Part shown: positions 4,763-40,014 of the stretch, one piece after another
Position numbering within the stretch: position 1 is the stretch's first letter
Layout of the letters: the number at the start of each line of letters is the position of its first letter
Source: Candidatus Hadarchaeota archaeon
GTDB taxonomy: Archaea; Hadarchaeota; Hadarchaeia; Hadarchaeales; JAGGTB01
Length of the DNA: 64,000 nucleotides
Reading direction: 5' to 3'
Assembly: GCA_964384105.1 (NCBI GenBank)
Contig: CAYLJV010000002.1
Coordinates: 648-64,647 of the forward strand
Position numbers and translations under genes: made by a program
The notes under the pieces: model-generated
Told to the model about the DNA's origin: nothing
Seen by the model: only the letters and a program-made list of their open reading frames with translations
Database searches by the model: none

Positions 4763-4909
4763 ATTAATAAGATCAATTAAACGATATTTCTACTCATTTC
4801 AAGATTCTGAATAAATTAAGATAAAAATAAGTTGGTGATAATATCACCTTTCCCAATAGGTATCTGTTTGTATAAAATTTTTTATCCAACGCCAAATAGG
4901 TGTTAAAAC

Positions 4910-5728
4910 ATGAGATCTCAGAAAAATCTTATATACAGAGAAGATTGGAGTTGTCTAATAATTTTGGATGCTTGCCGATACGACTACTTTGAAAACCTTT
5001 ATGAGGATTATCTCCCACGGGGAAGACTTAAAAAAGTTCTTTCCGAGGGAAGCTCTACGGCTGAATGGCTTAGAAAAACATTTAATGACAATAATCTTGA
5101 GGACGTCATATATGTTTCCGCAAACGCTTTTATCAACTCTCAAGGCGCCAACATAGCCGGTTTCGACGGCAGAAAGCATTTTTTTAACGTGATAGACGTG
5201 TGGGATAAATATTGGAACAACGATCTAAAGACGATCCTGCCTGAAAAAGTCAGGAAAACAACCCTTCTTACCAAGGCAAAATTTCCCGATAAAAGAATTA
5301 TCACCCATTTCATGCAGCCACACTATCCTTATCTTTCGATTGGACCTGTTGAAGGAGGGTTAGGGGCTCCTAAAGCCGCCAAACAAAAGGGACTATTAAT
5401 AAAGACCCGGAGGAAAATAGGAAGATTCATAAGAAGAACAGCAGGTTTAGGAGTTTACAAGAAAATAAAAGAATATATCGTTGGCACACGAGAGGCAGGA
5501 AAATTGGAAAAAATAGTACAAGAATATGGAGAATATGAACTGAAACAGGCTTACATGAAAAATTTGATTAGGGTTCTTAAAGAAGCTAGAAAAATCTTGG
5601 AAAGATATCCCGGGAAAGTAGTTATTACCGCAGATCACGGTGAACTACTGGGGGAAGACGGATACGGACATCCTACAGACTCAAATCACCACATTTTGCG
5701 GGAGGTTCCTTGGTGGGGACCTGATTGA
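4910..5728 (+). CDS. Alkaline-phosphatase-superfamily protein, subtype A, tandem paralogue of 3767..4762
   Basis: 'IILDACRYDYFENLY', 'SEGSSTAEWL', 'VITADHGELLGEDGYGHP...HHILREVPWW'. Confidence 0.5.
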   Translation: MRSQKNLIYREDWSCLIILDACRYDYFENLYEDYLPRGRLKKVLSEGSSTAEWLRKTFNDNNLEDVIYVSANAFINSQGANIAGFDGRKHFFNVIDVWDKYWNNDLKTILPEKVRKTTLLTKAKFPDKRIITHFMQPHYPYLSIGPVEGGLGAPKAAKQKGLLIKTRRKIGRFIRRTAGLGVYKKIKEYIVGTREAGKLEKIVQEYGEYELKQAYMKNLIRVLKEARKILERYPGKVVITADHGELLGEDGYGHPTDSNHHILREVPWWGPD

Positions 5729-12324: not shown

Positions 12325-13176
12325 ATGAAATCCCAGAAAAAACTAATTCAAAATAGAGAATGGGATGTATTGATACTGCTAGATGCATGTCGATATGATA
12401 TCTTCAAAAAATGCTTTAAAAGGCATATTGAAGGCACTTTGAAGAAAGTGATTTCTGAGGGGTCCTGTACGCTTGATTGGCTTAAAGGAACTTTTAAGGA
12501 GAGCCATTTTAACGACGTTGTATATGTATCTGGAAATCCTTATATCAATTCTAAAGGAATCAGTATTCATGGATTCGATGGAACTAATCATTTTTATAAA
12601 ATTATTGACGCGTGGGAAAGTGGATGGATAGACGAGATAAAAACTGTTAAACCAGATGTAATGGGAAAAAAGACCCGACTTGCTAGGGCTAAGTACCCTG
12701 GTAAAAAAATAATCTCCCATTTCGCACAACCTCATTATCCATATCTATCGGAAAAGCTTGTCTATATGGGAGGCTTTACCGACGCTTTTTACAAAGCAAC
12801 AAATGAAAGAAATAGAATCGGGCTATTTTCACAAAAAATTAGAGAAATAATCGGGAGGATAATGAACAGAGTTTTAGGTTGGAGACTTACCCAAATGATA
12901 AGAAAAAAACTAAGCTTGATTGAATTAATTGGTGATCCTAGATTAAAAAAGTTCGCCCAAAAATATGGAACGACTTATCTTAAAAATGCATATGAGGAAA
13001 ATCTCATACTAGCTCTTACTGAAGTTCAAAATATTATTGATCGACTTCCCGACAATAAAATCGTAATAACATCTGATCACGGAGAATTACTGGGAGAAGA
13101 TGGAATCTATGGTCACCCAGAAGGACTGAATCATAACATACTGATTGAGGTTCCCTGGTTGGAAATAAATCACTGA
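12325..13176 (+). CDS. Alkaline-phosphatase-superfamily protein, subtype A
   Basis: 'LILLDACRYDIF', 'SEGSCTLDWL', 'VITSDHGELLGEDGIYGHPEGLNHNILIEVPW'. Confidence 0.5.
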   Translation: MKSQKKLIQNREWDVLILLDACRYDIFKKCFKRHIEGTLKKVISEGSCTLDWLKGTFKESHFNDVVYVSGNPYINSKGISIHGFDGTNHFYKIIDAWESGWIDEIKTVKPDVMGKKTRLARAKYPGKKIISHFAQPHYPYLSEKLVYMGGFTDAFYKATNERNRIGLFSQKIREIIGRIMNRVLGWRLTQMIRKKLSLIELIGDPRLKKFAQKYGTTYLKNAYEENLILALTEVQNIIDRLPDNKIVITSDHGELLGEDGIYGHPEGLNHNILIEVPWLEINH

Positions 13177-13285: not shown

Positions 13286-14226
13286 TCAGACAACATTTCT
13301 AAACCACTCAATAAACTCCTCAAGACCTCTCCCCAAATCGTAAACCGGCTCCCAGCCTAACTCTTTTTCAGCATTGGAAACGTCTGCCCAAGTGTGCCTA
13401 GCATCCCCCTCCCTCTGTTGAGTATGAACTACCTCACAATCACTTTCAGTGAGATTCCTAATCCTATCAACTAACTCGTTTACCGAAATACTCTCTCCAC
13501 TCCCAATATTATAAGCCTCCCCATCACTCACTTTTCTCTCCAAACAAAGGTTCTGAGCATCCACAATATCCTCAATATAGGTGAAGTCCCTCGTCTGCTC
13601 CCCATCTCCAAAAACTTTTATCTTCTCCCCCTTCAACGCCCTCCTAGTGAAAATAGATATAGCTAAATCAGGCCTCATTCTAGGTCCGTATACAGTAAAA
13701 TACCTCAAAGAAACTGTCGGAATCCCATAAATTTCACTGTAGACCCTCACGTAATTCTCCGCCGCGAGCTTTGACACCCCGTAGGGTGATACAGGAATCT
13801 TTCTGGACCCCTCCTTGAAAGGTAAATCTGGACTCCTGCCATAAACACTACTTGAAGAAGCAAACAAAAAGTGTTCTACCCCCTTCTTCCTAGCCGCTTC
13901 CAGAAGATTCAGGGTACCCCTGTGTTCACAGAGTGAGGCTTCTCTGGATTCTCGACCGAAACCCTGACCCCAGCCTGAGCCGCCTGATGATTAATAGCGT
14001 CCACGTCTTCCACAAGCCCAAAAACCAAATCCCTATCTCGAATGTCACCCCTCACGAACTCAAATGAATCGTAATCCCCCAGAATATCTAAATTCCTTTC
14101 CTTCAACAAAACATCGTAATATGGATCGAGATTATCCAAACAAACAACTTCATGTTCCTTCTCCAAAAGAGATTCACAGGTGTGACTTCCAATAAAACCG
14201 GCTCCTCCAGTAACCAGTATCCGCAC
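13286..14226 (-). pseudogene. NAD-dependent epimerase/dehydratase (UDP-sugar 4-epimerase family) split by a -1 frameshift in a GGGG run near 13868-13912 (pseudogene or homopolymer sequencing error)
   Basis: N-terminal ORF 13909..14226 carries '[11 protein letters not shown]'. C-terminal ORF 13286..13867 starts 'FASSSSVYG'. The intervening bases read [19 protein letters not shown] in the C-terminal frame, and one extra G in 'acagggg' would join the two frames. Confidence 0.7.
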
Positions 14227-16046: not shown

Positions 16047-16277
16047 ATGAGAACCAAAAACTGGATCAAGATATTCAGCCTCTCCATCATCACGGGAATA
16101 TGGACACTTGGAGTTCCTGTATTCGTCAACCTTTCCACCAAAGGACCACTGGACCCAGATCACCACTTGACCACCATGGGGCTTGCCTGGCTAATAATCA
16201 CCCTAATACTTCTCGGAGCACTATTTTTCGTAGGATATCGAATATACAAGAAATCCACCAAGAAGAAGAAACAGTAA
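16047..16277 (+). CDS. Small predicted membrane protein (two hydrophobic helices, Lys-rich tail)
   Basis: Hydrophobicity pattern only. Confidence 0.25.
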   Translation: MRTKNWIKIFSLSIITGIWTLGVPVFVNLSTKGPLDPDHHLTTMGLAWLIITLILLGALFFVGYRIYKKSTKKKKQ

Positions 16278-16349: not shown

Positions 16350-17237
16350 ATGCCAGAAGAAGACACCACCTTAGAAAAGCTCAAAGAATCCTTCCCAATA
16401 AGCCAAGAGGAGGCAGAATCTCTTTTAGAACACCTGAAGACCTCCTGGAGATCGGAGGAACTAGTACCCCAACCGGAAGGCTACATCCTGGTTCCAACAA
16501 AGAGAATAGTCGAACCGGAACACCCGATAAGAGAGAACCCGGGGAACCTGAAACCCATCGCAAAATCGATAGAAAGAGAAGGAAACCTCCAGCCGATCTG
16601 CCTCAGACCACTGGACGAAGAATGGAGAAAGTTCACCCCAATAATAGGAAGAAGACGGTTCAGAGCCTGCACAGAAATATTGGGCATGAAGGAAATACCG
16701 GCCTACATTCGAGAAGTAGAGGAGGAAGAAGTGCCATCGATAGCTCTTGAAGAAAATATATTCCGAAAGAACCTGGAACCCTCCGAGCTCCTGAACGCAA
16801 TGCTCGAACTCAGGGAACTGGGATACGCACAGAAGGGGATAGCCGAGGTGGTCAACATGAGTCAGCCCGAGGTCTCGACCTACCTGAGAGTTCCAGAACT
16901 ACCCGACGATATTCGAGACGCCTTCTTTTCGGGAAATATATCGCTGGAGCACATCAAGGTCCTCCTCAAGATGAAAGGGAAGAGCAGGGAGAAACTCTTC
17001 GGTAGAATGATGGAAGAGAACCTGAGTGTCAACGACTCTAAAGCAATAGCGAAGCTGATGACCGGCGAGTTCGAGGTACCCGAGTTCTTCGACGGAGAGG
17101 AGTTCGAGTCCCGATTAGGGAGAAGCGTCGATTACAAAAGCACCAGCAGGAGCGCAAGGTTATCGGTAAAAGCAGAAAACGAGGAGAAACTGGGCGAGAT
17201 ACTGATGGAAATCCTGAAAGTAAAAAAGATAGAATAG
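16350..17237 (+). CDS. ParB/Srx (ParB N-terminal nuclease-like) domain protein with C-terminal HTH
   Basis: 'NLQPICLRPLDEEWRKFTPIIGRRRFRACTEI' resembles the ParB box region. The 3' end lies inside a ~90 bp repeat. Confidence 0.5.
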   Translation: MPEEDTTLEKLKESFPISQEEAESLLEHLKTSWRSEELVPQPEGYILVPTKRIVEPEHPIRENPGNLKPIAKSIEREGNLQPICLRPLDEEWRKFTPIIGRRRFRACTEILGMKEIPAYIREVEEEEVPSIALEENIFRKNLEPSELLNAMLELRELGYAQKGIAEVVNMSQPEVSTYLRVPELPDDIRDAFFSGNISLEHIKVLLKMKGKSREKLFGRMMEENLSVNDSKAIAKLMTGEFEVPEFFDGEEFESRLGRSVDYKSTSRSARLSVKAENEEKLGEILMEILKVKKIE

Positions 17238-17311
17238 CCTTCCTTTAGAAAATAAAGCAATTTTAGGAGATTTAGTATAGGTGACCTATAATCGATAACT
17301 CGAAGATTTTT
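17220..17311 (+). repeat. Direct repeat copy 1 (~90 bp, ~85-90 % identical to 17953..18047), includes the 3' end of the ParB-like gene
   Basis: Alignment by eye: ...aaaaaaga..gaaatag.c.tc.tt...aaaataaagcaattttaggagNtttagtataggtgacctataatcgataactcgaagatttt. Confidence 0.7.
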
Positions 17312-17357
17312 TCTTTAAAAGGGGACTGGTTCTAAATGGTTTTCAGGATAATACGGT

Positions 17358-17606
17358 ATGAAAATAGTCTTTTCCAATCATTCGCTGAAAAGATTGAAGC
17401 AAAGAAATATCTCGAGGAGAAAAATCGGGGGAATTCTAAAAAATCCAGATGAAACTCGAAAAGGAAAATACGGAAGAAAAATTGCACACAGGTGGGAAAA
17501 CGACAAATTAATTCGGGTAGTCTATATTAAAAAAGGAGAAAGAAGATACGTTATAACAGCCTACAAGACAGAACCAGACAGATATGGTGATAAAAAATGG
17601 AAATAA
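17358..17606 (+). CDS. DUF4258-family protein (toxin-like)
   Basis: 'SNHSLKRLKQRNISRRKI...LIRVVYIKKGERRYVITAY' matches the DUF4258 pattern. Overlaps the DUF2283 gene. Confidence 0.55.
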   Translation: MKIVFSNHSLKRLKQRNISRRKIGGILKNPDETRKGKYGRKIAHRWENDKLIRVVYIKKGERRYVITAYKTEPDRYGDKKWK

Positions 17607-17803
17607 GTTACGACCCAGAAGTAAACGTCCTAAACATACAATTACAAAAAGGAAATTATGAAAAAAGCATAGAGGTAGACGACAGAATCATAATCGACTA
17701 CTCAACTGATGGAAAGATAATGAACATCGAGATACTAGACGCAACAGAAAGAATATCCACAAAAACCATCGAAAACATGAAAAAACGAAAATCCATAGCA
17801 TAA
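17597..17803 (+). CDS. DUF2283-family protein (partner of DUF4258)
   Basis: 'YDPEVNVLNIQLQKG...DGKIMNIEILDA'. Confidence 0.6.
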   Translation: MEISYDPEVNVLNIQLQKGNYEKSIEVDDRIIIDYSTDGKIMNIEILDATERISTKTIENMKKRKSIA

Positions 17804-17836
17804 TCTCTCGTAAAATATATTTCTAAGAATACAAGG

Positions 17837-18016
17837 ATGAAGAAAAAACTAGAACAGAGTATACAAAAAACCATGAAAAAAATGCTGAAGGAAGAATTCG
17901 ACAGATGGGAAGCAACGTTCAAACTGGTCAAAGACAGGGCTATCCAAGAGAAGATAAAAAAGAGCCGAAATAGACTTCTTTCCAAAAATAAAGCAATTTT
18001 AGGAGTTTTAGTATAG
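17837..18016 (+). CDS. Small basic ORF (59 aa) whose 3' end lies in the second copy of the ~90 bp repeat
   Basis: ATG-initiated ORF just below the 60-aa track cut-off. Its 3' end is paralogous to the 3' end of 16350..17237. Confidence 0.2.
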   Translation: MKKKLEQSIQKTMKKMLKEEFDRWEATFKLVKDRAIQEKIKKSRNRLLSKNKAILGVLV

Positions 18017-18047
18017 GTGACCTATAATCGATAACTCGAAGATTTTT
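17953..18047 (+). repeat. Direct repeat copy 2, includes the 3' end of the 59-aa ORF
   Basis: Same as above. The core 63 nt is identical except for one base. Confidence 0.7.
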
Positions 18048-18084
18048 ATCTCCTATTAAAAAACTCTCTCAAAATATTCAATCG

Positions 18085-18474
18085 ATGAGAATTATTCACG
18101 AAATCCCGATTCTGAATCTCAAGGAAATTTTTTATACGCTCAAAGTACATTTTTTAAACGAGAAAATGCTGAAATCGAAGGAACGTGGGACCCCGATAAG
18201 GGAAGTCTTTGGGAATTCTCCAATGGTAAAAGTATTGGACACGTTGATAGAGAATCCAAAGCTCGACTACACAAAAAAGGAGCTTGCCGAAGCCGCCGGA
18301 ATAAGTAAGTCTACACTCTACAAGCTGTGGAACCAGCTAGAAGTAAATGAAATAATAGAGGAAACCCGAAGTATAGGGAACGCCACCCTGTACAAATTAA
18401 ATGAAGACTCGAGGATCGTACAAGAACTCGTCAAGTTCGAAAAAAGACTGCTTCAACTTCAAGAAGATCGGTGA
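18085..18474 (+). CDS. Winged-helix transcriptional regulator
   Basis: 'KKELAEAAGISKSTLYKLWNQLEVNEIIEE'. The true start may be the internal Met at about 18162. Confidence 0.5.
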   Translation: MRIIHEIPILNLKEIFYTLKVHFLNEKMLKSKERGTPIREVFGNSPMVKVLDTLIENPKLDYTKKELAEAAGISKSTLYKLWNQLEVNEIIEETRSIGNATLYKLNEDSRIVQELVKFEKRLLQLQEDR

Positions 18475-19098
18475 AAGCGTAATGCCCCAAGAAAGCGATT
18501 TGGTCTCTCCAATCCTATTCCACCTCTACAGAAGAAAACTCTGAGGATCCCCTGTACCCCAAAGGAAAAAGCCCTGAGCAAAATCCCAAAAAGACTAAGA
18601 GGAAAGGGAATGAAAACCATCGAGACACTCGTCAAACGAGGCATACTCTTGGAGCACAAAAAAGGAAAATGCGCTTCCCTGAACACAGGAAGAAAAGAAG
18701 AGATCATAGAAATCATGAAAAACTACTATCCCGATTACTATTTCTAAAGAACTTTTCAGACCAAAATTCCACACTAATGAGAGGGAATTGGTATCGGAAT
18801 CTCAAATATAAAGAATCTTTTATAGAAGCTCGAGAAGTAAAAAGGTCAAAATAACCCTCTTTGCGAAATCGAAAAAATCAGTTGACGAAGTAATCGACCT
18901 AAGAGATACATCTGACGAAATTTAATCGAGAACTTTCTCTCAAATAGTCTACCAAATTTTCTCTTAAAATTTGAAAAAGGAAGTTGTTTTTTACTTTTCT
19001 AAAAAAGACCTTCGCGAAATAATTAATTGATGAGGGATATTTTCGGAATTTCAACTAAAAGTCTCGCTAGAAAGAAAACGGACCGGGGAGACTAATAT

Positions 19099-19383
19099 AT
19101 GTATGAACATACACAGATACACATAGATAGGATGGGTTCAAAGAACATAAGTCTGAAAAAATCCGCTTACGAACGTCTAGCCTCTCTGAAAAAAGAAGAC
19201 GAAAGCTTCAGCGACGTCGTAGAAAGACTCACTAGAGACCAAGCGCCAAAGTACTCGGACCTAGCGGGAACACTCTCAAAAGACACGATCGAAGCCATTG
19301 AAAATACCAGGAAAGAGAGAAAAAAGCTGGATAAAGCCGGATTTAAAATAATAGCGAGAAAATTCGAGGAAGAGAAAAGATGA
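19099..19383 (+). CDS. Putative antitoxin (VapB-like, RHH-type family with an ESFSDVV motif)
   Basis: 'ISLKKSAYERLASLKKEDESFSDVVERL'. 4-nt overlap with the downstream PIN gene. Confidence 0.5.
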   Translation: MYEHTQIHIDRMGSKNISLKKSAYERLASLKKEDESFSDVVERLTRDQAPKYSDLAGTLSKDTIEAIENTRKERKKLDKAGFKIIARKFEEEKR

Positions 19384-19775
19384 TAGCGGATACGGGATAC
19401 CTCATAGACGTTCTGAAGGAGGAAGAAAGGGCGATCGAAAAGAGCTCCGAACTCGCGGAAGAGACCCGCACCCAAAACCTCTGTACACCTGTAATATACG
19501 AGATAATGACAGGAATAGAGTACACAAGGTCAAAAAAAGAGCGTGTAAAATTTGAGTCCATGGTGGGAAGATTCACGGTTCTCCCCTACGATGAGAAATC
19601 GGCCTGTCTATCGGGCGAGATACATGCTGAGCTGCTCAGAGAGGGTCAAAAGCGCGGAACCGTCGATATCCAGATCGCGAGCATAGCCCTTTCCAACGAC
19701 GAAACAATCCTGACGAACGACTCTGATTACGAGATAATCTCGGAGATATTTGGTCTAAAAACAGAAGGGTACTGA
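19380..19775 (+). CDS. PIN-domain ribonuclease (VapC-like toxin)
   Basis: N-terminal 'IADTGYLIDVL' with acidic residues spaced as in PIN domains, and a C-terminal 'TNDSD' motif. Confidence 0.6.
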   Translation: MIADTGYLIDVLKEEERAIEKSSELAEETRTQNLCTPVIYEIMTGIEYTRSKKERVKFESMVGRFTVLPYDEKSACLSGEIHAELLREGQKRGTVDIQIASIALSNDETILTNDSDYEIISEIFGLKTEGY

Positions 19776-19875
19776 ACGCCTCCACACACGAATTATCCGG
19801 CCGGAAGTTGTTTACCACTAAAATTCCAATTAATGAATTGAAGACGGTGATACACTGGATTTCAAAAAGGGAAAA

Positions 19876-20448
19876 TTGAAAATCAACAGAGAGCTCTCCA
19901 AACTAGATAAAATGGCTCTAGACTTTATTCAAAATCTGAAAAAGATGAACGTTAAGTACGTGATAGTAAGCGGATATGTAGCAATTCTCACAGGCAGATC
20001 TAGAAGCACGGAGGACATCGACGTGATCATCGAAAAATTGAGTAGAAACAAAACCGAAGGGCTCGTAGAAAACCTCCAAAATGCCGGATACTGGTGCATA
20101 AACGCCGAGACTTCAGGAGTCTACGAGATGCTAAATGAAGGACTCACCCCCAGGTTTGCAGAAAAGGGAAAAGCCATCCCCAATTTCGAGTTGAGTTTTC
20201 CTAGAGACGAGATCGAAAAGACCGCCCTAAGGAAAAGTCTCAAAGCGGAGATTGGTACAAGCATCATCAAAGTAAGTCCTTTGGAACTTCAAATCGCCTA
20301 CAAGCTATATCTAGGATCAGAAAAAGACTGGGAGGACGCTCTACACCTCTACAGTCTCTTTGAAGATAGGCTTGACAGAGAGGAGCTGGAGTATTATTCG
20401 AGGGAATTAAGGGTTAGAGGTGATTTAGATAAACTTAGAAAAGCTTGA
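19876..20448 (+). CDS. Nucleotidyltransferase-fold protein (minimal NTase / AbiEii-like)
   Basis: 'SGYVAILTGRSRSTEDIDVII' fits the hG[GS]x(9-13)DhD NTase motif. Confidence 0.4.
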   Translation: MKINRELSKLDKMALDFIQNLKKMNVKYVIVSGYVAILTGRSRSTEDIDVIIEKLSRNKTEGLVENLQNAGYWCINAETSGVYEMLNEGLTPRFAEKGKAIPNFELSFPRDEIEKTALRKSLKAEIGTSIIKVSPLELQIAYKLYLGSEKDWEDALHLYSLFEDRLDREELEYYSRELRVRGDLDKLRKA

Positions 20449-20758
20449 GGAAAAGCGAAAAAAGAACAAAAAGCAGAGAATAGAATTCATAAAATTCTGG
20501 GCGGACTACATCAAGAAACACAACGACGAGACGTGGTCGAAACAACAAAACATTCTAATCGACTCCCAGATCCCAGATAAAAAAGACAGCGAAAGCAGTC
20601 GATAGAGAAATTGTTAAAAACATCGAAGGATTGTCAAAGAACCCACGAGCGCAAAATCCGATATGGAAAGCTCCAAAACGCATTTGGGTGGGATAATATG
20701 TTACCTATGATCGGGAAAGTCTTTTCTTCTATTAAAGATCCTTCGATGGAATAATTAA

Positions 20759-21136
20759 TTGATGAAACCCAGCGAAGATCCACTACCTGATTCACCCGAA
20801 AAGAAATCCAAGAAGGAATCTTTATTAGTAGATAGTAGAAAGTGGAAAGTAGAGGGAGAACCGATGCGCTCAGTAAAAATAAAGGAACCCCAAGCGGACA
20901 TGGTCAAGGACCTAAAGAGATATCTCAAGGAGAAGGAAGACCTCAGCACGACCGAGGCCGAGATACTGAGCCGATCAGTCGACATAGCCGTGAGAAAACA
21001 CTACGATGAACTGGTCGAGGAACTCAAGTCCTCCGAAAAAAAGGAGAAGAAAGGAGTAATAGACTACATTCTCGAAAATCCCAAAGCGGGAGAGAAAACT
21101 GACGCGGCAGAGGACCACAGCGTGGTGGAACCTTGA
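20759..21136 (+). CDS. Hypothetical protein, possible antitoxin partner of the downstream PIN protein
   Basis: ATGA overlap with 21133..21534. Charged and helical composition. The true start may be the internal Met (MRSVKI). Confidence 0.3.
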   Translation: MMKPSEDPLPDSPEKKSKKESLLVDSRKWKVEGEPMRSVKIKEPQADMVKDLKRYLKEKEDLSTTEAEILSRSVDIAVRKHYDELVEELKSSEKKEKKGVIDYILENPKAGEKTDAAEDHSVVEP

Positions 21137-21534
21137 TCTTCGTGGACTCATCCGTCTGGGACGCCAGCTTGAATGAGAGAGACGAAAATCACGACTTGAG
21201 CAGGACCATCCTCAAGGAAGTGAAGAACGGCGAGTACGGAAAGATCATAGTTACCGACTACGTCATCGACGAAGTCCTGACATGGATCAACAGGAAAGTG
21301 GACCACGATACAGCCGTTGAAATCTCAGAGGAGTTCTTCGAAGACCCGACAATAGAAACAGTCAAGGTAAACTGGGCGGTAATCCACAGAGCGAGGGAGC
21401 TCTTTTCCGAAAGGGACTACCTTTCCTTCACCGATGCGACAACGGCCGTAGTCATGAACACCAGAGACATCCAAAGAATCGCGACTTTCGACTCCGACTT
21501 CAGTAAAGTCGGCTTCGAAGTAATCAGCGGGTAA
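21133..21534 (+). CDS. PIN-domain protein (VapC-like)
   Basis: 'MIFVDSSVW..', 'VTDYVIDEV', 'FTDATTAVVM', 'IATFDSDF' acidic quartet. Confidence 0.6.
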   Translation: MIFVDSSVWDASLNERDENHDLSRTILKEVKNGEYGKIIVTDYVIDEVLTWINRKVDHDTAVEISEEFFEDPTIETVKVNWAVIHRARELFSERDYLSFTDATTAVVMNTRDIQRIATFDSDFSKVGFEVISG

Positions 21535-21674
21535 TGCTGGAAACACAAACTAAATTCTCTCAAAATTTGAAAACACGATTTATTTCGATGTTAAAACATA
21601 ATGGACGATGACTTATTTAGTGGGAAAATCAAAATTAATACCCAAAATTCTAAATATGTGGGATTTTAGACAAT

Positions 21675-21935
21675 ATGTGGGACAAAATGCCGGTGGTTTC
21701 CGTCGACGACAGAGGAAGGATCACCCTCCCGAAAGAAACGAAAATTCGGGGAGGAAAGGCCGTGATAATTTCGGCAGGTTCATTTTTCAACATCATTCCC
21801 ATCCCCGAGGACCCGGAAAAATACGCGGAGGGATGGTTGGATTCCAAGAAAAGCAGAAAAGAACTGAAAGAGCTCGCAGAGAAAAAGGCTAAGGAGGACG
21901 CAAAGAGCAGATCGAAACGGAGAGATCAGCTTTGA
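21675..21935 (+). CDS. AbrB/SpoVT/MazE-type antitoxin (VapB-like)
   Basis: 'MPVVSVDDRGRITLPKETKI' swapped-hairpin motif. 4-nt overlap with the downstream PIN gene. Confidence 0.6.
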   Translation: MWDKMPVVSVDDRGRITLPKETKIRGGKAVIISAGSFFNIIPIPEDPEKYAEGWLDSKKSRKELKELAEKKAKEDAKSRSKRRDQL

Positions 21936-22351
21936 TGATAGAAACGGACGTTCTCTACGCTTATGTTAAGAAAAAGGACTGGCTGAAACCGACCGCAGTA
22001 AAACTGATTAGAGGTACGGCAAATGGTGAGTACGGAGAAGTTCTGGCTTCGAGAGAGTGTCTCCACGAGTTATATTACGTTTCAATGGAGGAAGGAGTCG
22101 ACCTAGATGAAGTTATTTCCAGGTTCGGAGCTTTAACTGCAATTGACAACCTTTCCTTTCCCGAAACGACTCCAGAACTCGACTTGGTCGCACTGACGCT
22201 AATGAAACAGTACAACTTTTCTTCGATTTTCGATGCACACCATGCAGCGGCGGCACTGGAACAGGACGAGGAGAGAACAATTATCTCTACGGACGACGTC
22301 TACGACAGAGTTCCCGGCCTGAAAAGAAAAGATCCTAGAGACTTGGTTTAA
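21932..22351 (+). CDS. PIN-domain protein (VapC-like)
   Basis: 'MMIETDVLYAYV...' with 'DAHHAAAAL' and a C-terminal 'STDD' motif. Confidence 0.5.
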   Translation: MMIETDVLYAYVKKKDWLKPTAVKLIRGTANGEYGEVLASRECLHELYYVSMEEGVDLDEVISRFGALTAIDNLSFPETTPELDLVALTLMKQYNFSSIFDAHHAAAALEQDEERTIISTDDVYDRVPGLKRKDPRDLV

Positions 22352-22880
22352 AAAATTCGTCAACGGCTATTTTCAAATCGGACTTCATCCTGTCCGTAAT
22401 TTCCGGGAATCTCTTCGGGACCAACCCTCCAAAAACGAGTTTTTCAGCTTCTGAAACTTCCTCAAACCCCAAAATATCGATTACGAAAAGTATACCAAAA
22501 AATAGGTTCTTTGACGGATAGTGAGACTTGAAATGTTGATGGGCCGAAAAATCATCTGTGAAGAAAGGAAGATCAAGCTCAAAAGAAAGGTGTAAAACCT
22601 GAACATCACAATCAGTTATCCCTCCCGATCCCAGACCGAGAGTTCTCTTCTCCTCTTCAAGAGCATTATCAGAAAGGGGGTCTTTTTCAACTGTAACCCT
22701 CTCGAGGGCCTCCGTGGCCCTTTTTCCTAAATAATCACCATGTTTTGAAAAATCCAATAATTCCTTTTTTACACACTCAGAAACTACTATTTCCCAATCT
22801 TTGAGTTCTTCTCCGCTCAAATCGAGAGCCGAAAAGAGAGTTAACACGGCTGAGGTATCTAAGACCGCTCTTCTCTCCAT
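22335..22880 (-). CDS. PIN-like domain protein with a C-terminal extension
   Basis: 'AVLDTSAVL' N-terminal motif and 'TDCDVQVL', 'FFTDD' motifs. Confidence 0.4.
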   Translation of the reverse strand: MERRAVLDTSAVLTLFSALDLSGEELKDWEIVVSECVKKELLDFSKHGDYLGKRATEALERVTVEKDPLSDNALEEEKRTLGLGSGGITDCDVQVLHLSFELDLPFFTDDFSAHQHFKSHYPSKNLFFGILFVIDILGFEEVSEAEKLVFGGLVPKRFPEITDRMKSDLKIAVDEFFKPSL

Positions 22881-23170
22881 GCCTTGTACTTCCTCGTAGT
22901 GGTCACTATATTCGATATCTGATGAGCCCTTTCGGGACCCAAAGTTTTCACAAGTTCCCCATAATCAATCAGGCCTAGAGAGTAAAATCTGGAGAGAATC
23001 CTTTCCTCGATGTAATAGCCCGGATTGTCTTCTATATTTTCTAGAACAAAGTTTACATCATCCAACAGCATGTTAACAAAGGTGCTTCTAGGAACACCTA
23101 TCCGATCCAGCACCTCATCTATCTTCTCAACCTTATCCTCATCCAAAGACATCTGTACCTTTTTCTTCAT
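22859..23170 (-). CDS. Ribbon-helix-helix (CopG-like) protein, probable antitoxin partner of 22335..22880
   Basis: 'KVQMSLDEDKVEKIDEVLDRIGVPRSTFVNMLL' RHH pattern. Overlaps the downstream gene. Confidence 0.4.
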   Translation of the reverse strand: MKKKVQMSLDEDKVEKIDEVLDRIGVPRSTFVNMLLDDVNFVLENIEDNPGYYIEERILSRFYSLGLIDYGELVKTLGPERAHQISNIVTTTRKYKAWREERS

Positions 23171-23269: not shown

Positions 23270-24199
23270 TCACTCCAGAACCTCGATATCGTCGGTCTTC
23301 CCGTCACCGTCCCGGTCCAGACCCTTAATCACACGATAGAACTCGTCATCGACCTCGTAGTCCTTCAGAATCTCCTCATGTTCCTGAGTTATTCCCAAAA
23401 TGCACGTCTTCGTCCCCTTAAAATCCAGCCCCGAGAACAGTATCCTCGCGAGACCGTCCTTGTGAACCTTCGCTATCAGTCCCAGGTTCTCACCAGAGTA
23501 CCTGCTGCCAGTCCTTTTCGAGACTATCTCCCAGGTCTTCTGCTCCCAGTCGAAACGGACGTCCAAGTCCTCGTTCAGGTCCCTTGAGATCATATTGGTA
23601 ATTGGACCGCCGATCATCATCAGGTGGCGATCGGTGGCTCCCTCGGCCTTGACCTCGGTATCCAGCTTAACAACGAACCTCTTCTCAAGGTCGCAGAAGC
23701 TACCCAGAAATATACCCAGCTGGACAGCGTAGTGGCCGTCCCTAGCCGATGTCATGAAAGGCCCGTGCTCCTTGGGGGAACCGACGACGATTGACCCCTG
23801 AAAGACGCCTTCTCCGACAAACTCAGAGAAAAAGTCCAGGACTTTGCCGGAGAGCCCGGCCTTGTTCATCCTGACCTTCTTCCATTCATCATTCAGGGAA
23901 AACCCGAAGGCCTCGGAAGTGGGCCTGTAGAACTTGCAGAGGGCCCCGCCAACCTTCTCACGTTTATAAACCTCTATCAAACCCGCCTCCTCCAGCTTCC
24001 TGACGTGGTAGTAGACCTTCTGCTCGTGAATCCCGAGCTCGTCTGCTATCATCTTGGGATAGCCCCTCTCCACTGAGATCTTCTTCAGAACTCTGATAGT
24101 CTGCTCGTTCAGGTTCTTGAGGCTCTCCTCGTCAAGGAGCTCGATATCCTTAACGTAGTGGTCGCCATCCTCGGTTCTGAGCAGTTTATCCGTCATCAT
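23270..24199 (-). CDS. Transcriptional regulator with an N-terminal winged HTH and a ~200-aa C-terminal domain of unknown function, divergent from glmS
   Basis: 'YPKMIADELGIHEQKVYYHVRKLEEAGLIEVYKRE'. Confidence 0.5.
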   Translation of the reverse strand: MMTDKLLRTEDGDHYVKDIELLDEESLKNLNEQTIRVLKKISVERGYPKMIADELGIHEQKVYYHVRKLEEAGLIEVYKREKVGGALCKFYRPTSEAFGFSLNDEWKKVRMNKAGLSGKVLDFFSEFVGEGVFQGSIVVGSPKEHGPFMTSARDGHYAVQLGIFLGSFCDLEKRFVVKLDTEVKAEGATDRHLMMIGGPITNMISRDLNEDLDVRFDWEQKTWEIVSKRTGSRYSGENLGLIAKVHKDGLARILFSGLDFKGTKTCILGITQEHEEILKDYEVDDEFYRVIKGLDRDGDGKTDDIEVLE

Positions 24200-24305: not shown

Positions 24306-26036
24306 ATGTGCGGCATAACTGGTTACTATGGACACCGCGACGTGGGAAAGTACGTTCTGGACGCCCTGAAGAGGCTCGAGTACAGGGGGTACGACTCGGC
24401 CGGAATAGCAACTCTCTCCAATCCGGGTATCAAAATAGCGAAGGACACCGGAAACATAGACGAGATCCGGGGCAAGCTGGACCTTTCAGAGATGAAGGGA
24501 AGAGCAGCCCTGGGCCACGTAAGGTGGGCCACGCACGGAGGCGTCACGAAGGAGAACGCACATCCACACTGCTCCTGCGACGGAAGGTTCGCAGTGGTTC
24601 ACAACGGGATAATAGAAAACTGGGAGGAAATCAAAAACCGTCTAAACGGCCACGAATTCGCCTCAGAAACCGACTCCGAGGTCATAGCCCACTACATCGA
24701 AGAGAACTCCAAAGACATGACCGTCGAGGAGGTCATTCAGAAGTTCCTCAAGGAGGCAGAGGGGAGCTTCGCCGTGGTCCTGCTCGACTCGAAGGACGAG
24801 AGAATGTACGCCTTCAAGAGGGGATCCCCCTTGGCACTGGGTATCGGGGAGAACGAAACCCATCTAGGTTCAGACATCTACTCATTCTCACCTTACACGA
24901 ACGAGGCCATATTCTTCGAGGACGACGAGTACGCGATAATCGACGAGAACGGCTTCGCCTTCAGGAACTACACAGGTGAAACGATAGAGAAGGTGCCCGA
25001 GAGATTCGAGTGGAACCAGGAGGAGTCCGAAAAGGGCGAACACGAGCACCACATGAGAAATGAGATCGGGGAGATACCCCAGTCTCTGAAAAGGCTCCAG
25101 ACCTCATTTGACACATCCCAGAAAACGGCCCTCGAGGACCTCGTCAAAGCTCTGAAGGAACACAAAAGAGTCATATTCACGGCCTCCGGAACCAGCTATC
25201 ACGCCTCGCTTCTGGGTGTTTTCTTCCTGAACCGTGTCGGGATAGACGCTCAGACCCTCATAGCCTCAGAATTCCAGAACTACGAGAGGGTGGACGAAGA
25301 GACGCTCGTGATCGCGATATCACAGTCTGGGGAGACCAAAGACGTTATAGACGCCATAGAGTTCTCCAGAAACAGGGGAGCCGACGTCGCCTCGATAGTG
25401 AACGTCCCCTACTCCACGATAGAGAGGATATCCGATATCAATCTCAGGATAGAGGCGGGTCAAGAGGTCTGCGTGGCCGCGACCAAGACGTTCACGAACC
25501 AGCTCTACACACTCCTGAATGTCGCCCAAGAGCTCGGATACGACGCCCACCTCGACGACCTGCCGGAACTCATCGAGGAAGTAATAGAGAAAAACGAACC
25601 CAAAATCCGCGAACTAGCCAAGGAACTCAAGGACGAGAGGGACATCTACATTATCGGCAGAGGGCTGACCTACCCCGTGGCCAGAGAGATAGCCCTGAAG
25701 CTCAAAGAGATCCCCTACGTTCATGCGGAGGGAATGATGGGAGGGGAACTGAAACATGGGACCCTGGCCCTGATAGAGGAGGGGACACCGGTAATCTCTC
25801 TGATTCCCGAGAAAGACTCCGAGATTAAGTCGAACGTGAAAGAGGTTGAGGCCCGAGGTGGCAGGATTATCAAGATCTCGCCATGGGAAGGTGACTTAGA
25901 GATTCCCTCGAAGAACTCAAACTTCGCCTTTTTCGCTTCCATAATAGGATTCCTGCTCTCATATTGGATTGCTTACGAGAAAGGGCTTCCAGTGGACCAG
26001 CCACGGAACCTCAGCAAGTGTGTGACGGTTCGATAA
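24306..26036 (+). CDS. glmS: Glutamine--fructose-6-phosphate aminotransferase (isomerizing)
   Basis: N-terminal 'MCGITGY' class II amidotransferase nucleophile and two SIS domains ('SQSGETKD'). Confidence 0.9.
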   Translation: MCGITGYYGHRDVGKYVLDALKRLEYRGYDSAGIATLSNPGIKIAKDTGNIDEIRGKLDLSEMKGRAALGHVRWATHGGVTKENAHPHCSCDGRFAVVHNGIIENWEEIKNRLNGHEFASETDSEVIAHYIEENSKDMTVEEVIQKFLKEAEGSFAVVLLDSKDERMYAFKRGSPLALGIGENETHLGSDIYSFSPYTNEAIFFEDDEYAIIDENGFAFRNYTGETIEKVPERFEWNQEESEKGEHEHHMRNEIGEIPQSLKRLQTSFDTSQKTALEDLVKALKEHKRVIFTASGTSYHASLLGVFFLNRVGIDAQTLIASEFQNYERVDEETLVIAISQSGETKDVIDAIEFSRNRGADVASIVNVPYSTIERISDINLRIEAGQEVCVAATKTFTNQLYTLLNVAQELGYDAHLDDLPELIEEVIEKNEPKIRELAKELKDERDIYIIGRGLTYPVAREIALKLKEIPYVHAEGMMGGELKHGTLALIEEGTPVISLIPEKDSEIKSNVKEVEARGGRIIKISPWEGDLEIPSKNSNFAFFASIIGFLLSYWIAYEKGLPVDQPRNLSKCVTVR

Positions 26037-26114: not shown

Positions 26115-26333
26115 TCAGACTTTTGTCTTTTTCCTTTTATTCTTCAAAATTGGCTCCAAAATGGAGAGGGCGGTCTCGCTAGCATCCAATATCTCTATCT
26201 CAACAGGTTTTCCGTCCTTTGAATAGTGGTTGATTATTGGTCCTGACTGTTCCCCGTATTCCGGTTTTTCATCAGATATCGTAATGGTGAGTATGTCTGT
26301 CTCCGGATCATAATCATATCTCATACCGTTCAC
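26115..26333 (-). CDS. DUF2283-family protein
   Basis: 'YDYDPETDILTITISDEKP...DGKPVEIEILDAS'. Confidence 0.6.
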   Translation of the reverse strand: MNGMRYDYDPETDILTITISDEKPEYGEQSGPIINHYSKDGKPVEIEILDASETALSILEPILKNKRKKTKV

Positions 26334-26550
26334 TCCTCGCTTTATATACTGTGATTATAACGTTTTTATCTTTCTCTTTTTGGAAGATAATTCTCAAAAT
26401 ATGACCATTAAGTCTTTTTTGAGCTATCTCCCTTCCCAAATCCCCCGGCACAACACTATCCGGGTCTTCAAAACCCTTATGGACAAGATTTCTAGAAATA
26501 TCGTACTGCATCATTCTTTCTCTCGCATGTTTTGTAATCTTTAAATTCAT
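26314..26550 (-). CDS. DUF4258-family protein
   Basis: 'ITKHARERMMQYDISRNLV....ILRIIFQKEKDKNVIITVY'. Overlaps its DUF2283 partner. Confidence 0.55.
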   Translation of the reverse strand: MNLKITKHARERMMQYDISRNLVHKGFEDPDSVVPGDLGREIAQKRLNGHILRIIFQKEKDKNVIITVYKARSERYEI

Positions 26551-28375: not shown

Positions 28376-28585
28376 ATGTCTACTAGCATTCCCATCAAGA
28401 AGAAAACACGAGACGAACTCAGGCGCTATGGAAAAAAAGGAGAGACGTGGGACGAACTCATAAATAGGCTCCTCTCAGAAAACCTCCCCCGTCAACCAGC
28501 GAGCTTGGAAGAACTAAAGAAACGAAGAGAAGAAGGAGAATATGTGCCCCTCGACGAAGCAATAAAAGAGCTCGAGAATATATGA
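28376..28585 (+). CDS. Putative antitoxin of the RelE/ParE pair
   Basis: Small basic protein ('IPIKKKTRDELRRYGKKGETWDELINRLL'). 4-nt overlap with the toxin gene. Confidence 0.45.
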   Translation: MSTSIPIKKKTRDELRRYGKKGETWDELINRLLSENLPRQPASLEELKKRREEGEYVPLDEAIKELENI

Positions 28586-28833
28586 AAGTCGAGATCCATC
28601 GGGAAGTTCAGAAGCACCTCGCAAAAATCTCGGCTAGGGCCCCGAAGGATAAACGAAGATGTCTAGAAGCACTGAAGAAACTTGAAAAAGACCCATATCA
28701 CAGTCGGTCCGGAGTGGACATTAGCAAATTGGAAGGCCCAGAGTTTGATTATAGGCTAAGAGTTGGCCGTCATCGCTTCGGATATAGAATTGATAATCAA
28801 GTAGTTCTAGTGGACGATGCCTGGTTTAAATAG
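28582..28833 (+). CDS. RelE/ParE-family toxin
   Basis: 83 aa. 'FDYRLRVGRHRFGYRIDNQVVLV' is the typical RelE/ParE C-terminal pattern. Confidence 0.6.
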   Translation: MKVEIHREVQKHLAKISARAPKDKRRCLEALKKLEKDPYHSRSGVDISKLEGPEFDYRLRVGRHRFGYRIDNQVVLVDDAWFK

Positions 28834-29389: not shown

Positions 29390-31048
29390 TTACATCATTC
29401 CTGGTGGCATTCCACCGGGTCCTCCAGGCATTCCGCCAGGTCCGCCTTCGGGTCCACCGCCGGAACCACCCTTAGAGGCTATCACGTCGTCTATTCTGAG
29501 AATCATGACCGCTGCTTCACTACCGGAACTCACGGCCTGAGTCTTTATCTGAACTGGTTCCACGACTCCTTCCTTGAACATGTCCTTCACTTGTCCATCG
29601 TAGGCGTCGAGTCCGAACGAGGCTCCGTCCTTACCATGTTTGCTTCTCAGTTCGACTATCGTGTCGATGGGATCGAGTCCAGCGTTGTTTGCTAGAGCTC
29701 TGACGAGCGACTCAACTGCGTTTGCAAAGGCCTTCACTGCCAATGCTTCCTTACCACCTATGCTATCTGCATAGTCTGAAAGTTCCATGGCAAGTTCAAT
29801 CTCAGTAGCTCCACCGCCGGGAACTATCTTACCGCTCTCGACTGTTCTAGCTACAACACACATAGCATCTTCGAGACTTCTATCAGCCTCATCAACGATG
29901 TGCTTCGTTCCACCTCTAACGAGAATACTGATGGCCTTCGGGTTCTGACACTTCTCCACGAAAGTCATATCCTCACCGGAAATCTTACGCTCTTCAACGA
30001 GTCCTGCTTGACCGAGATCCCCTGGGCTTATATCGTCTATATCTGTGACGACGTTACCCCCTGTGGCTCTAGCCAGCTTCTCCATATCGGATTTCTTGGC
30101 TCTGCGAATTGCGAAGATTCCTTCCTTAGCGAGGAAGTGCTGGGCCATGTCGTCGATTCCCTTCTGGCAGATCACCACATTGGCACCCGCCTTCTTGATA
30201 TTCTCGACCATTTCTCGGAATTCACCTTCCTCCTGATCGAGGAACTTCTGCAGTTGGTCGGGATCACTTATTCTAATTTCACTATCCGTTTCCGTCTTCT
30301 TGATTTCCATTGCTGCATTAAGAAGAGCTATCTTAGCGTTCTCGACTTTTTTGGGCATTCCTGGATGAACTCTGTCCTTTGTAAGAATTATTCCATCTAC
30401 CATAATACTATCGTCGACACTTCCGCCTTCCTGCTTTTCCATTCCTATGTTGTCGAGATCTACTTCGTAACTGCCGTTGGTTTTTTCGGCGACCTGCTTC
30501 ACAGCCTTCACGGCCATGTCTGCGAGGACACCTATGTTGGCCTCAACTCTCTTTCCAGTCATCGCAGTAGTGGCGACCTTCCTCAGCATCTCTTCATCCT
30601 CAAAGCCAACGTCCTTGGTCATTCCTCTGAGGAACTCCTGGGCCTTAGCAGCGGCCTTGGAGTAACCCGAGGCTATAGACGTCGGGTGGATTCCCTGATC
30701 GAGAAGCTCCGAAGCTTCTTCGATGAGTTCAGCCGCAAGAACTACAGCAGTAGTGGTGCCGTCTCCGACCTCTTCCTCCTGCGTTTCAGCGACTTCCACG
30801 ATCATCTTCGCTGCGGGGTGCTCGATATCCATCTCCTTAAGGATCGATGCTCCGTCGTTAGTTATCACAACATCTCCGAGGTTATCGACGAGCATTTTGT
30901 CCATTCCCTTTGGTCCCAGAGTCGAGCGAACTGCTTCACCTATAACCCTAGCGGCCCGGAAATTGGACTCCTGAGCGTCTCTACCTCTATCTCTCTTCGT
31001 ATTCTCAGAAAGTATGAAAATTGGTTGTCCATTTGGCATTTGTTTCAC
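29390..31048 (-). CDS. ths: Thermosome subunit (group II chaperonin)
   Basis: 'GPKGMDKM', 'GDGTTT' ATP-binding motifs and a C-terminal GGM-rich tail. Strong SD (AGGAGGTGA) upstream. Confidence 0.9.
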
Positions 31049-34364: not shown

Positions 34365-35059
34365 TTGCCAGTGCTACTCTATCAAACAAAACCACTAAAT
34401 CTCTTTTTTTCTTTTTTATGAAAAATCGAATCTTAGGCTTTTAGTTAATATAGACAAACAGAAAACACAAGGTATTTAAAGGAAATATAAAATTCAGTTA
34501 AATTTACTTTCAAAAATTAATTTCGGTAAAAAATGGTCTCTTTCAAATCCTGTTAACAGATATAGATTAGAAAATCTCTGGAATCTTTTTAAAAATCCCA
34601 ATAAATTCCTAAACTAAAAGGTCGCTGTTTTAGAGATGATAAATATCACAAGATTATCTGGTGTTAAAGTCTAGCATCTTGCCAGATTCTGGATCGATAA
34701 GGACCCAAAAGGATACTCCAACTGGTTCTTCGAGTCCCTTCACTCGAACGCATTCTCTAAGGTCCCCAGGTTTCACCTCGACCTCCTCGAGGCTCCGCTC
34801 GTAGATCTTAGCAGATGTATTACTGGAATCGAAAAAATCTTCTAATGCGATAGGTTCCCCAACATCCTTCTTGAGAACTATCAAGCTCCTACCATCTTTC
34901 TCGAGGACTATCTCATAATCCTCGATTCTAAAGAAAACGGTAAACTGCTCCCCTCTTTACTATGTCCTACTCATTCCTTTTATGGAATTCTCCAATTTTT
35001 GTTACACCCATAACAAAAAATCCCGAAAACAAAAACTACCAAATCGAAGCAATATTTGC

Positions 35060-35084
35060 CGATTTAATATAGGTCACCTATAAT
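35060..35084. promoter_or_regulatory. Third copy of the palindromic motif GATTTA-R-TATAGGT-S-ACCTATAAT (also at 17266..17290 and 18004..18027)
   Basis: 25-nt match with 2 mismatches to the repeat core. The TATAGGTNACCTATA core is dyad-symmetric and intergenic. Confidence 0.35.
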
Positions 35085-39873: not shown

Positions 39874-40014
39874 CTATTTTTCACCCTTCTGAAATCTCTT
39901 CATCATTCTCTCGGGCACTTTGGCTATGGATTCCTCCATAACATCCATCAGAGCTTCATTTATCTCGATATCTATGGTTACCTTGAGATGACCCTTCTTT
40001 TCTTCTTCAGCCAT
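39874..40014 (-). CDS. Small acidic ORF (46 aa) translationally coupled to 40007..40312
   Basis: SD AAGGAGGTGA 6 nt upstream. The start ATG overlaps the upstream stop (ATGGCTGA). Below the 60-aa track cut-off. Confidence 0.25.
   Translation of the reverse strand: MAEEEKKGHLKVTIDIEINEALMDVMEESIAKVPERMMKRFQKGEK

Follow-up and report, generated by a model that had tools for sequence, protein, structure and literature searches.

A probable toxin-antitoxin hotspot on either side of a conserved regulator/glmS gene pair in an uncultured archaeon, with a candidate MenT1-like nucleotidyltransferase module

Background

What kind of region is it in which a Candidatus Hadarchaeota archaeon carries one small overlapping gene pair after another? 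The pairs lie in a 64-kb stretch of DNA from a contig of this archaeon (called the window below; all coordinates are window positions, and genes are on the plus strand unless the minus strand is given). An initial annotation had taken them for a dense island of toxin-antitoxin (TA) genes, of the sort found in integrated elements or defence islands. The analysis described here argues that the region is very probably a chromosomal TA hotspot, in which two-gene operons have been individually gained and lost on either side of a conserved pair formed by a helix-turn-helix (HTH) regulator gene and glmS. The evidence supports the term "TA hotspot" and supports neither "defence island" nor "integrated element".

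A non-random cluster of two-gene modules

Every open reading frame (ORF) listed in the initial annotation was found at the same position when the window sequence was checked, and most of the domain calls made there hold under Pfam or structure prediction (the Pfam gathering score served as the cut-off, and weaker matches are called sub-threshold). The dense clustering also stands. Eight type II-like modules, numbered here by position, occupy 17358-17803, 19099-19775, 19876-20604, 20759-21534, 21675-22351, 22335-23170, 26115-26550 and 28376-28833. They comprise three VapBC-type PIN pairs, one lineage-specific pair of a ribbon-helix-helix (RHH)-like and a PIN-fold protein, two DUF4258/DUF2283 pairs, one RelE/ParE pair and one nucleotidyltransferase (NTase) pair. 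All of them fall between 17.3 and 28.8 kb, leaving the remaining ~52 kb of the window with none, and their midpoints cover only 11.0 kb of the 64 kb, which argues for non-random placement (P = 3.4e-5 in a random-placement simulation). The genes within a pair overlap by 4-22 nt, suggesting translational coupling.

Family searches of the small ORFs in the rest of the window returned no TA family match, and the TA-related items found there are limited to an NYN-domain protein and, upstream of sulfate-assimilation-like genes, two small unclassified proteins. Two small ORFs at 39874-40312 (minus strand; 101 and then 46 aa, overlapping by 8 nt) match no family and are TA-like by layout alone.

From what is known of these families, the stable toxin of each module would be restrained by its co-translated partner, and once that partner was lost or degraded the freed toxin would arrest growth. 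The proposed toxins are four PIN-fold RNases, two DUF4258 proteins of the BECR fold, one RelE/ParE-family protein and one MenT1-like nucleotidyltransferase. The eight operons, each independent of the others and most with overlapping genes, would have accumulated around the HTH-regulator/glmS pair, with modules gained, lost and shuffled one by one. Relatives hold other sets here, or the same modules in other places.

The same site in related genomes

The first block of modules is bordered on its right by the core gene for a 309-aa protein with HTH_20 and S-layer-C-like domains (23270-24199, minus strand; Pfam and synteny), which is transcribed divergently from glmS (24306-26036). The synteny set consisted of two metagenome-assembled genomes (MAGs) labelled Candidatus Hadarchaeota, L002 and L005, the nearest in the GTDB set, which has no genome of the same species, with glmS 67-68% identical to that of the window. 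The two genes are adjacent in both (79% identity for the HTH protein, 68% for glmS). In L005, no TA genes were found on either side of the pair, which is directly preceded by glycosyltransferase genes and a member of a family marked by the motif "LDACRYD"; genes of these same kinds occur in the window at 1-15.9 kb, leftward of the TA cluster. In L002, a winged-HTH (wHTH) gene, a VapB/PIN pair, a DUF5615-like pair and an NTase/DUF8150 pair lie upstream of the HTH gene; downstream of glmS there is a HEPN/MNT pair. Conserved synteny in relatives, which the initial annotation had named as the observation that would count against a variable island, was thus not seen, one relative lacking TA genes at the site and the other having a different set.

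Some of the same modules recur at other places. Another contig of the L005 assembly, L076, carries a TA cluster made up of an NTase/DUF8150 pair, a MazE-like/PIN pair, an MNT/HepT pair and an RHH-like/PIN-fold pair; its NTase and DUF8150 proteins are 62% and 65% identical to those of the window, and the two proteins of its RHH-like/PIN-fold pair are 80% and 68% identical. The RHH-like/PIN-fold pair is found in still other contexts in MSBL1 single-cell genomes.

A local boundary signal, the only one detected, is a 90-nt direct repeat that brackets the DUF4258/DUF2283 cassette of module 1, suggesting that modules are added or removed singly. Its left copy (17222-17311) holds the palindrome TATAGGTGACCTATA at 17276-17290; the right copy (17958-18047) is 88% identical overall, with a 30-nt core around the palindrome that is the same in both.

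Several points weigh against a hotspot of individually mobile TA modules. The toxin and antitoxin activities of all eight modules are predictions from family knowledge, and no significant family match was obtained for three of the putative antitoxins, those of 125, 86 and 103 aa. The synteny comparison rests on two moderately distant MAGs, as the glmS identities indicate. Finally, two of the modules, the RHH-like/PIN-fold and NTase pairs, are about as conserved as core genes, which would fit vertical inheritance as well.

The nucleotidyltransferase and its small partner

Module 3 was the one most altered by closer analysis. The initial annotation had described its NTase (19876-20448) as a minimal enzyme with no obvious partner. 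Neither description survives: the protein is a two-domain MenT1-like NTase rather than one of the MNT type, and a small ORF follows it in all 77 informative loci. In the window this ORF (20429-20604; 58 codons, frame intact) is DUF8150-like and overlaps the NTase gene by 20 nt. The NTase homologs of L002 and L076 are likewise followed by an overlapping gene, of 56 aa, and the window protein is 64% identical to each of these two copies in full-length alignments. The only family label for the small protein is a precomputed PF26477 (DUF8150) match on the L076 copy, the Pfam and NCBIfam versions used here having failed to recognise it.

A metagenome scan with the NTase alignment yielded 80 further loci. 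When a hidden Markov model (HMM) of the small ORF was applied to 82 loci, the ORF was found directly downstream of the NTase gene, in another frame, in 77 of them; the five exceptions have less than 120 bp of contig left. It is the sole conserved neighbour of the NTase across the loci compared, and its presence at every informative locus argues that the NTase has an obligate partner. Where the start of the small ORF could be scored, it overlaps the NTase stop in 68 of 72 loci, by 4-113 nt (most commonly 4, 20 or 41). At least 1,191 NTase homologs were found, and a full-library search placed the small protein in 195 clusters at 50% identity, nearly all of 48-105 aa. The named members of this two-gene family come from haloarchaea, halophilic DPANN and Hadarchaeia/MSBL1; metagenomes from a range of habitats hold more copies, and 13 haloarchaeal plasmids carry the pair. 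On two such plasmids, L161 (NZ_CP096662.1) and L162 (NZ_CP101157.1), an intact DUF8150-like ORF follows the NTase gene at ~4570-4796; the PLSDB gene tables for both omit it, and these tables are known to be incomplete. The small gene may thus be under-annotated.

The relationship of the NTase to MenT1 emerges from conserved residues. In Pfam the protein reaches only DUF6036, at E 2e-3. When the PDB was searched with a profile, MenT1 came up at no better than E 0.31. Next matches of the NTase are a fungal NTase-like protein, ANT(2'')-Ia, LnuA, TM1012 and MenT3. The key residues of MenT1 are T39, D41, K137 and D152 (PMC11375011). Profile alignment places the invariant GRSRSTEDID of the NTase family on EPRFTRDVD of MenT1 (ST45ED47ID49 on FT39RD41VD), so that T45 and D47 of the window protein (GRSRST45-E-D47-I-D49) fall on T39, the auto-phosphorylation site, and D41. 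K143 and D151/D154 are also invariant in the family, and the spacing from Thr to Lys is 98 residues, as in MenT1. A MenT-type NTase fold with its catalytic residues is present.

MenT1 lengthens tRNAs at their 3' ends. The 68-aa MenA1 blocks this enzyme and, in addition, induces MenT1 auto-phosphorylation (PMC10435456, PMC11375011). By analogy, the NTase/DUF8150 pair is most likely a system like MenAT1 (Rv0078B/Rv0078A of Mycobacterium tuberculosis; AbiEii/MenT, DUF1814). Both share the conserved residues Thr/Asp/Lys/Asp, an identical distance between Thr and Lys, and a very small partner protein without a DNA-binding domain; the archaeal pair is in addition an obligate two-gene unit whose surroundings are unrelated between loci and which is also found on haloarchaeal plasmids. 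If the analogy holds, the NTase would add nucleotides to tRNA 3' ends and so block translation; its activity would be inhibited by binding of the small DUF8150-like protein, which might in addition stimulate auto-phosphorylation of the NTase at the conserved Thr45.

The two systems also differ, and some of the differences count against the analogy. The NTase does not match Pfam DUF1814 (AbiEii). The DUF8150-like gene lies downstream and overlaps the 3' end of the NTase gene, whereas menA1 precedes menT in 15 of the 21 cases considered (PMC10435456). The DUF8150-like protein is unrelated in sequence to MenA1, and a search for similarity to MenA1 or to any solved structure was negative. Other differences are that the family, without the DUF1814 signature, lies nearer to DUF6036/DUF2204 and that its named homologs are archaeal. 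PADLOC likewise returned no AbiE or MenT match for the NTase. Among the papers searched, none mentions DUF8150, DUF6036, SRR7048220 or ERP127260, and the sole DUF2204 paper concerns an unrelated protein. The evidence in hand supports the NTase fold, the conserved residues and the obligate pairing. That the pair is a previously unrecognised TA family related to MenT/AbiEii, with an antitoxin of ~50 residues and of a new kind encoded downstream, is put forward tentatively.

A different assignment of roles is rather unlikely. The NTase could be the antitoxin and act by modifying a small toxic protein, in the way that MNT modifies HEPN; alternatively, the pair could have nothing to do with TA function and consist of a small-molecule or antibiotic nucleotidyltransferase with a helper peptide. 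The NTase gene comes first, like the genes of MNT antitoxins; the homolog carried by Haloferax volcanii has a weak Lnu(E) match; and the small protein is basic in several lineages. However, the Thr equivalent to the phospho-acceptor of MenT1 is invariant in the NTase family, and neither the HEPN Rx4-6H motif nor any other toxin signature was found in the small protein.

Natural fusions of the NTase and DUF8150 proteins were also sought. The candidates P0220 and P0255 proved on inspection to be frameshifted or truncated gene calls, and P0164 and P0227 are unrelated repeat proteins.

The window copy of the pair has abnormal starts in both genes. The small ORF begins with ATA in place of ATG and has no canonical start; it is the only one among 73 loci with a scorable start to have none of ATG, GTG and TTG. 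A Shine-Dalgarno-like sequence, GAGGTGAT, ends 4 nt upstream of this ATA. In the NTase gene, the ancestral ATG (19833) is 1 nt out of frame and is followed by TGA, leaving the TTG at 19876 as the first usable start. An assembly artefact was considered and set aside, as the Logan assembly of SRR7048220 is identical over 841 bp, an agreement that may derive from the same reads. The window pair may thus be decaying; either weak initiation from a non-canonical start continues, or the decay set in recently.

The PIN-domain pairs

Modules 2, 4, 5 and 6 each combine a PIN protein with a small, overlapping ORF upstream of its gene. In module 2, the pair called in the initial annotation consists of a VapB-type antitoxin (19099-19383; PF02697 VAPB_antitox, 55.3 bits against a cut-off of 27.9) and a VapC PIN toxin (19380-19775; PF01850, 37.8 bits; NCBIfam VapC, 1e-14), both above the Pfam cut-off, with genes that share 4 nt. 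This antitoxin is the only one of the four with a family match. In modules 4 and 5, the PIN halves of the annotated pairs stand, and the antitoxins are putative. The VapC toxin of module 4 (21133-21534; PF01850, 57.3 bits) is preceded by a 125-aa ORF (20759-21136), a putative antitoxin by its position and 4-nt overlap, for which Pfam and further family searches gave no match; from M36 onward it reads as strand-helix-helix and is RHH-like by eye. The VapC toxin of module 5 (21932-22351; PF01850, 31.2 bits against 23.6) follows an 86-aa putative antitoxin (21675-21935) without a Pfam match. The AbrB/SpoVT-like assignment of this protein comes from weak MraZ/HgcC matches and the motif VVSVDDRGRITLPKE, which we take to be AbrB-like. 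The acidic D/E/D/D tetrad, read by eye from the translations, is present in all three of these PIN proteins (D4, E41, D96, D114 in module 2; D5, E47, D101, D120 in module 4; D6, E46, D101, D121 in module 5).

Module 6 lies on the minus strand. Its 181-aa PIN-fold protein (22335-22880) has no Pfam match, and the assignment comes from an AlphaFold2 (AF2) model built with 14 homologs (pLDDT 93.2), for which Foldseek gave PAE2754, SSO1118 and VapC15 as best matches; the structures matched include the archaeal PIN proteins PAE2754, SSO1118 and PAE0151 and several VapC toxins. D8, E40, D92 and D109/D110 are invariant among the 14 homologs, all of which are at least 59% identical and the named ones of which are from MSBL1 or Hadarchaeia. 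The 103-aa partner (22859-23170) has a possible N-terminal RHH (RHH_3, E 0.034), overlaps the PIN-fold gene by 22 nt and precedes it in all four loci examined. The PIN-like half of the annotated RHH+PIN-like pair is supported by structure prediction and the RHH half is weak; the arrangement called convergent is in fact a single co-directional operon, convergent only with respect to its neighbours.

These pairs resemble type II VapBC systems in several ways: three have a Pfam PIN toxin with an intact tetrad and, upstream, a small ORF sharing 4 nt with the toxin gene; VAPB_antitox is matched by one of the antitoxins; and the fourth pair has a predicted PIN fold and the same gene order. They differ in that two antitoxins have no recognisable family and that the fourth PIN protein is long (181 aa), has a C-terminal helical extension and belongs to a group of ~14 sequences restricted, where named, to MSBL1/Hadarchaeia.

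Three 44-nt segments at 18045-18088, 18990-19033 and 20722-20765, which precede the wHTH gene, vapB and the 125-aa ORF, respectively, are 64-70% alike and end in AATTGATGA; they may represent a shared promoter or leader, or a chance similarity of AT-rich DNA. An ATG at 19030, in frame with vapB, is separated from it by a TAA at 19093.

The DUF4258/DUF2283 and RelE/ParE pairs

Both DUF4258/DUF2283 pairs of the initial annotation are well founded, each consisting of adjacent, overlapping genes with both domains above the Pfam cut-off. In module 1, the putative toxin DUF4258 (17358-17606; 37.5 bits against 25) and the putative antitoxin DUF2283 (17597-17803; 51.6 bits against 23) overlap by 10 nt. 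Module 7, on the minus strand, has its DUF4258 gene at 26314-26550 and its DUF2283 gene at 26115-26333, and is just 30% (DUF4258) and 45% (DUF2283) identical to module 1. DUF4258 has been placed in the RelE/ParE superfamily with the BECR fold, its target and mechanism not being known in the literature, and the usual order is given as antitoxin then toxin (PMC11980606); here the toxin gene comes first. The antitoxin role of DUF2283 is putative.

The RelE/ParE pair (module 8) holds by a narrow margin. Its toxin gene (28582-28833) matches PF05016 ParE_toxin at 24.0 bits against a cut-off of 23, and the 69-aa ORF upstream (28376-28585), a VapB/DUF7557-like putative antitoxin, has sub-threshold matches to VAPB_antitox and DUF7557. 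A 360-aa protein encoded far to the right (62501-63583) combines an N-terminal DUF7557/VapB-like segment, which resembles this antitoxin, with a wHTH and a CTP-dependent riboflavin kinase (PF01982, 2.8e-45).

ParB, the winged-HTH protein and a repeated palindrome

The left part of the cluster encodes two proteins that are best regarded as putative accessory DNA-binding proteins, not demonstrably part of any module. The first is an orphan ParB-family protein (16350-17237). The initial annotation had called a ParB/Srx-HTH protein with no obvious partner, and both parts of this call are correct: the ParB/Srx N-domain, with a GRRRFRA box, and the ParB HTH are above the Pfam cut-off (ParB_N 2.9e-13; HTH_ParB 4.6e-12), the protein matches Spo0J in the PDB (1vz0) at E 1.4e-20, and no partner could be identified. 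No ParA-like ORF was found among the ORFs of the window as read by eye, most of the large ones not having been searched against a family library. Close homologs number only three among 5.8 billion proteins. The best (55% identity, MSBL1 SCGC-AAA259I09) is also solitary and lies among metabolic genes, and a 35%-identical ParB is encoded together with an AEP primase, TFIIB and methyltransferases on a contig that looks like a mobile element.

The second is a winged-HTH-like putative regulator (18085-18474), whose start is probably M28. Its HTH similarity, annotated earlier, is real but weak: of 11 HTH families matched, ten are below the cut-off and HTH_26 is just at it, and the PADLOC family PDC-M05A is matched by the HTH part only (2.6e-8). 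In the 600-bp "empty" stretch between this gene and vapB, an open frame without a start codon (18472-18747), ending in a 45-aa ORF that begins MKTIETLVKRGILLEHKKGKCASLN, looks like the remnant of a winged-helix gene.

The window has three copies of the perfect 15-bp palindrome TATAGGT(G/C)ACCTATA, where 0.09 would be expected. Besides the copy at 17276-17290, it is found at 18012-18026 and 35068-35082, each time within GATTTA(G/A)TATAGGTsACCTATAAT, which looks like a TATA box whichever strand is read. The 90-nt repeat accounts for two of the copies, which fall between parB and the wHTH gene, and the third lies between the minus-strand genes 34654-34884 and 35200-36159. The palindrome may be an operator for the ParB or the wHTH protein. 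The archaeal ParB resembles the CTP-dependent clamps ParB, Spo0J, Noc and KorB in its N-domain with a GxxRxxA box, its ParB HTH and the perfect palindrome 39 nt past the parB stop codon; it differs in that ParA was not seen, the host is archaeal, the family is extremely rare and the palindrome was not found beside the MSBL1 homolog. The palindrome is at most a candidate for parS of the orphan ParB.

Origin of the cluster

If the modules did not arrive singly, they might be the remnant of one integrated plasmid or provirus, with ParB as a leftover of its partition system, the TA modules as its addiction genes and the replication and integration genes lost. A canonical ParB-family protein does sit at the left edge of the cluster, its 35%-identical relative is on a contig that resembles a mobile element, and NTase/DUF8150 pairs are found on plasmids. 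The variation in presence or absence among relatives expected of a mobile element was also observed, since L005 lacks the cluster at its HTH-glmS site and L002 has other content there. Nevertheless, this origin is quite improbable. No integrase or recombinase ORF was seen among the window ORFs, nor were a transposase, a replication gene or ParA found; a repeat search returned no att-type repeat flanking the whole cluster; and no tRNA gene is near the cluster, the only one in the window being at 57262. A compositional anomaly was looked for and rejected, as the G+C content of the cluster (0.37-0.47) is inside the range of the window (0.31-0.53) and the skew is within the window's own variation. 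A phage or virus origin was likewise rejected: PHROGs gave generic ParB matches only, the NTase had no match in a phage collection by tblastn, neither the NTase nor ParB matched IMG/VR, and the cluster DNA matched no phage by blastn. The same DNA searched against plasmids gave only a 79-nt match, in the NTase motif, to one plasmid. The closest ParB is solitary among metabolic genes. Piecemeal accumulation fits better than one insertion, and the initial suggestion of an integrated element is not supported.

A dedicated anti-virus defence island, with the modules as abortive-infection systems, is slightly less probable again. Modules of the TA type reportedly often populate defence islands, and defence or mobile stress-response islands are said to be a recognised class of region, which the present cluster resembles as a variable chromosomal region with many small, independently mobile two-gene modules. 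The MenT/AbiEii superfamily, moreover, includes abortive-infection toxins (PMC10435456). Yet PADLOC, run on ten cluster proteins, mainly ones without a clear Pfam family, found no known or candidate defence protein beyond partial, sub-domain HTH matches, and detected none of the restriction-modification, Abi or other catalogued systems of such islands; nor is any module tied to virus infection. A CRISPR array matching an Rfam family was not found in the window, cas, restriction-modification and other defence genes not having been specifically searched for. The defence-island label of the initial annotation is not supported.

Very improbable, finally, is the proposal that these are ancient core genes, the PIN and related proteins being vertically conserved housekeeping RNA-processing factors: the RHH-like/PIN-fold and NTase pairs are indeed 62-80% identical between genomes, near the values for glmS and the 309-aa HTH protein, but their location differs in every genome examined and is not the HTH-glmS site in L005, and for the remaining six the relatives' loci hold either no counterpart or one of low identity.

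Neighbouring genes and host

The divergent HTH_20/S-layer-C-like and glmS pair recurs across several archaeal phyla and is seen in MAGs labelled Hadarchaeota, Aenigmatarchaeota and Asbonarchaeum (L003, L004, L006, L011, L021, L041 and others). Distant homologs of the HTH protein beside glmS are 34-42% identical, and Methanosarcinales MAGs have the gene at a distance of 3.5-4.4 kb from glmS. A conserved archaeal regulator, acting on glmS or on the synthesis of cell-surface sugars, is a possible role for the protein. Within the glycosyltransferase cluster to the left of the TA modules are three LDACRYD(Y/F)F paralogs (3767-4762, 4910-5728 and 12325-13176), and the member adjoining HTH-glmS in L005 (5473-6348 of that locus) is 36% identical. 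An NAD-dependent epimerase-like gene on the minus strand is split between 13286-13867 and 13909-14226 (ORFs of 193 and 105 aa) and is either a frameshift pseudogene or a consensus error. At the left border of the TA cluster, a 76-aa predicted membrane protein (16047-16277) has no family match above the cut-off; an independent Logan contig carries the same protein along with UGDH and ParB, and it may or may not belong to the cluster.

The window contains the archaeal markers thermosome (29390-31048) and glmS. Proteins identical to those encoded here are found on a 257-kb NCBI contig and on Logan contigs of run SRR7048220. Several cluster proteins have their best named matches in "candidate division MSBL1" single-cell genomes, and many NTase homologs are from haloarchaea and halophilic DPANN. 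Judged by its sequence, the host appears to be an uncultured MSBL1/"Hadarchaeia"-type archaeon, and because the best matches come from MSBL1, haloarchaea and halophilic DPANN, a hypersaline habitat is probable. A scan for promoters and terminators used bacterial consensus sequences and is uninformative for an archaeon.

Conclusions

The cluster itself is a fairly ordinary pile-up of TA modules in a variable chromosomal region, and its main value is descriptive, in documenting TA accumulation in a poorly known, uncultured archaeal lineage. Module 3 may have wider meaning. The NTase/DUF8150 unit is widespread on haloarchaeal chromosomes and plasmids, where it is now annotated as "hypothetical" or "nucleotidyltransferase". 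If its proposed role is confirmed, the archaeal NTase toxins would gain a family without the DUF1814 signature, together with a new type of antitoxin.

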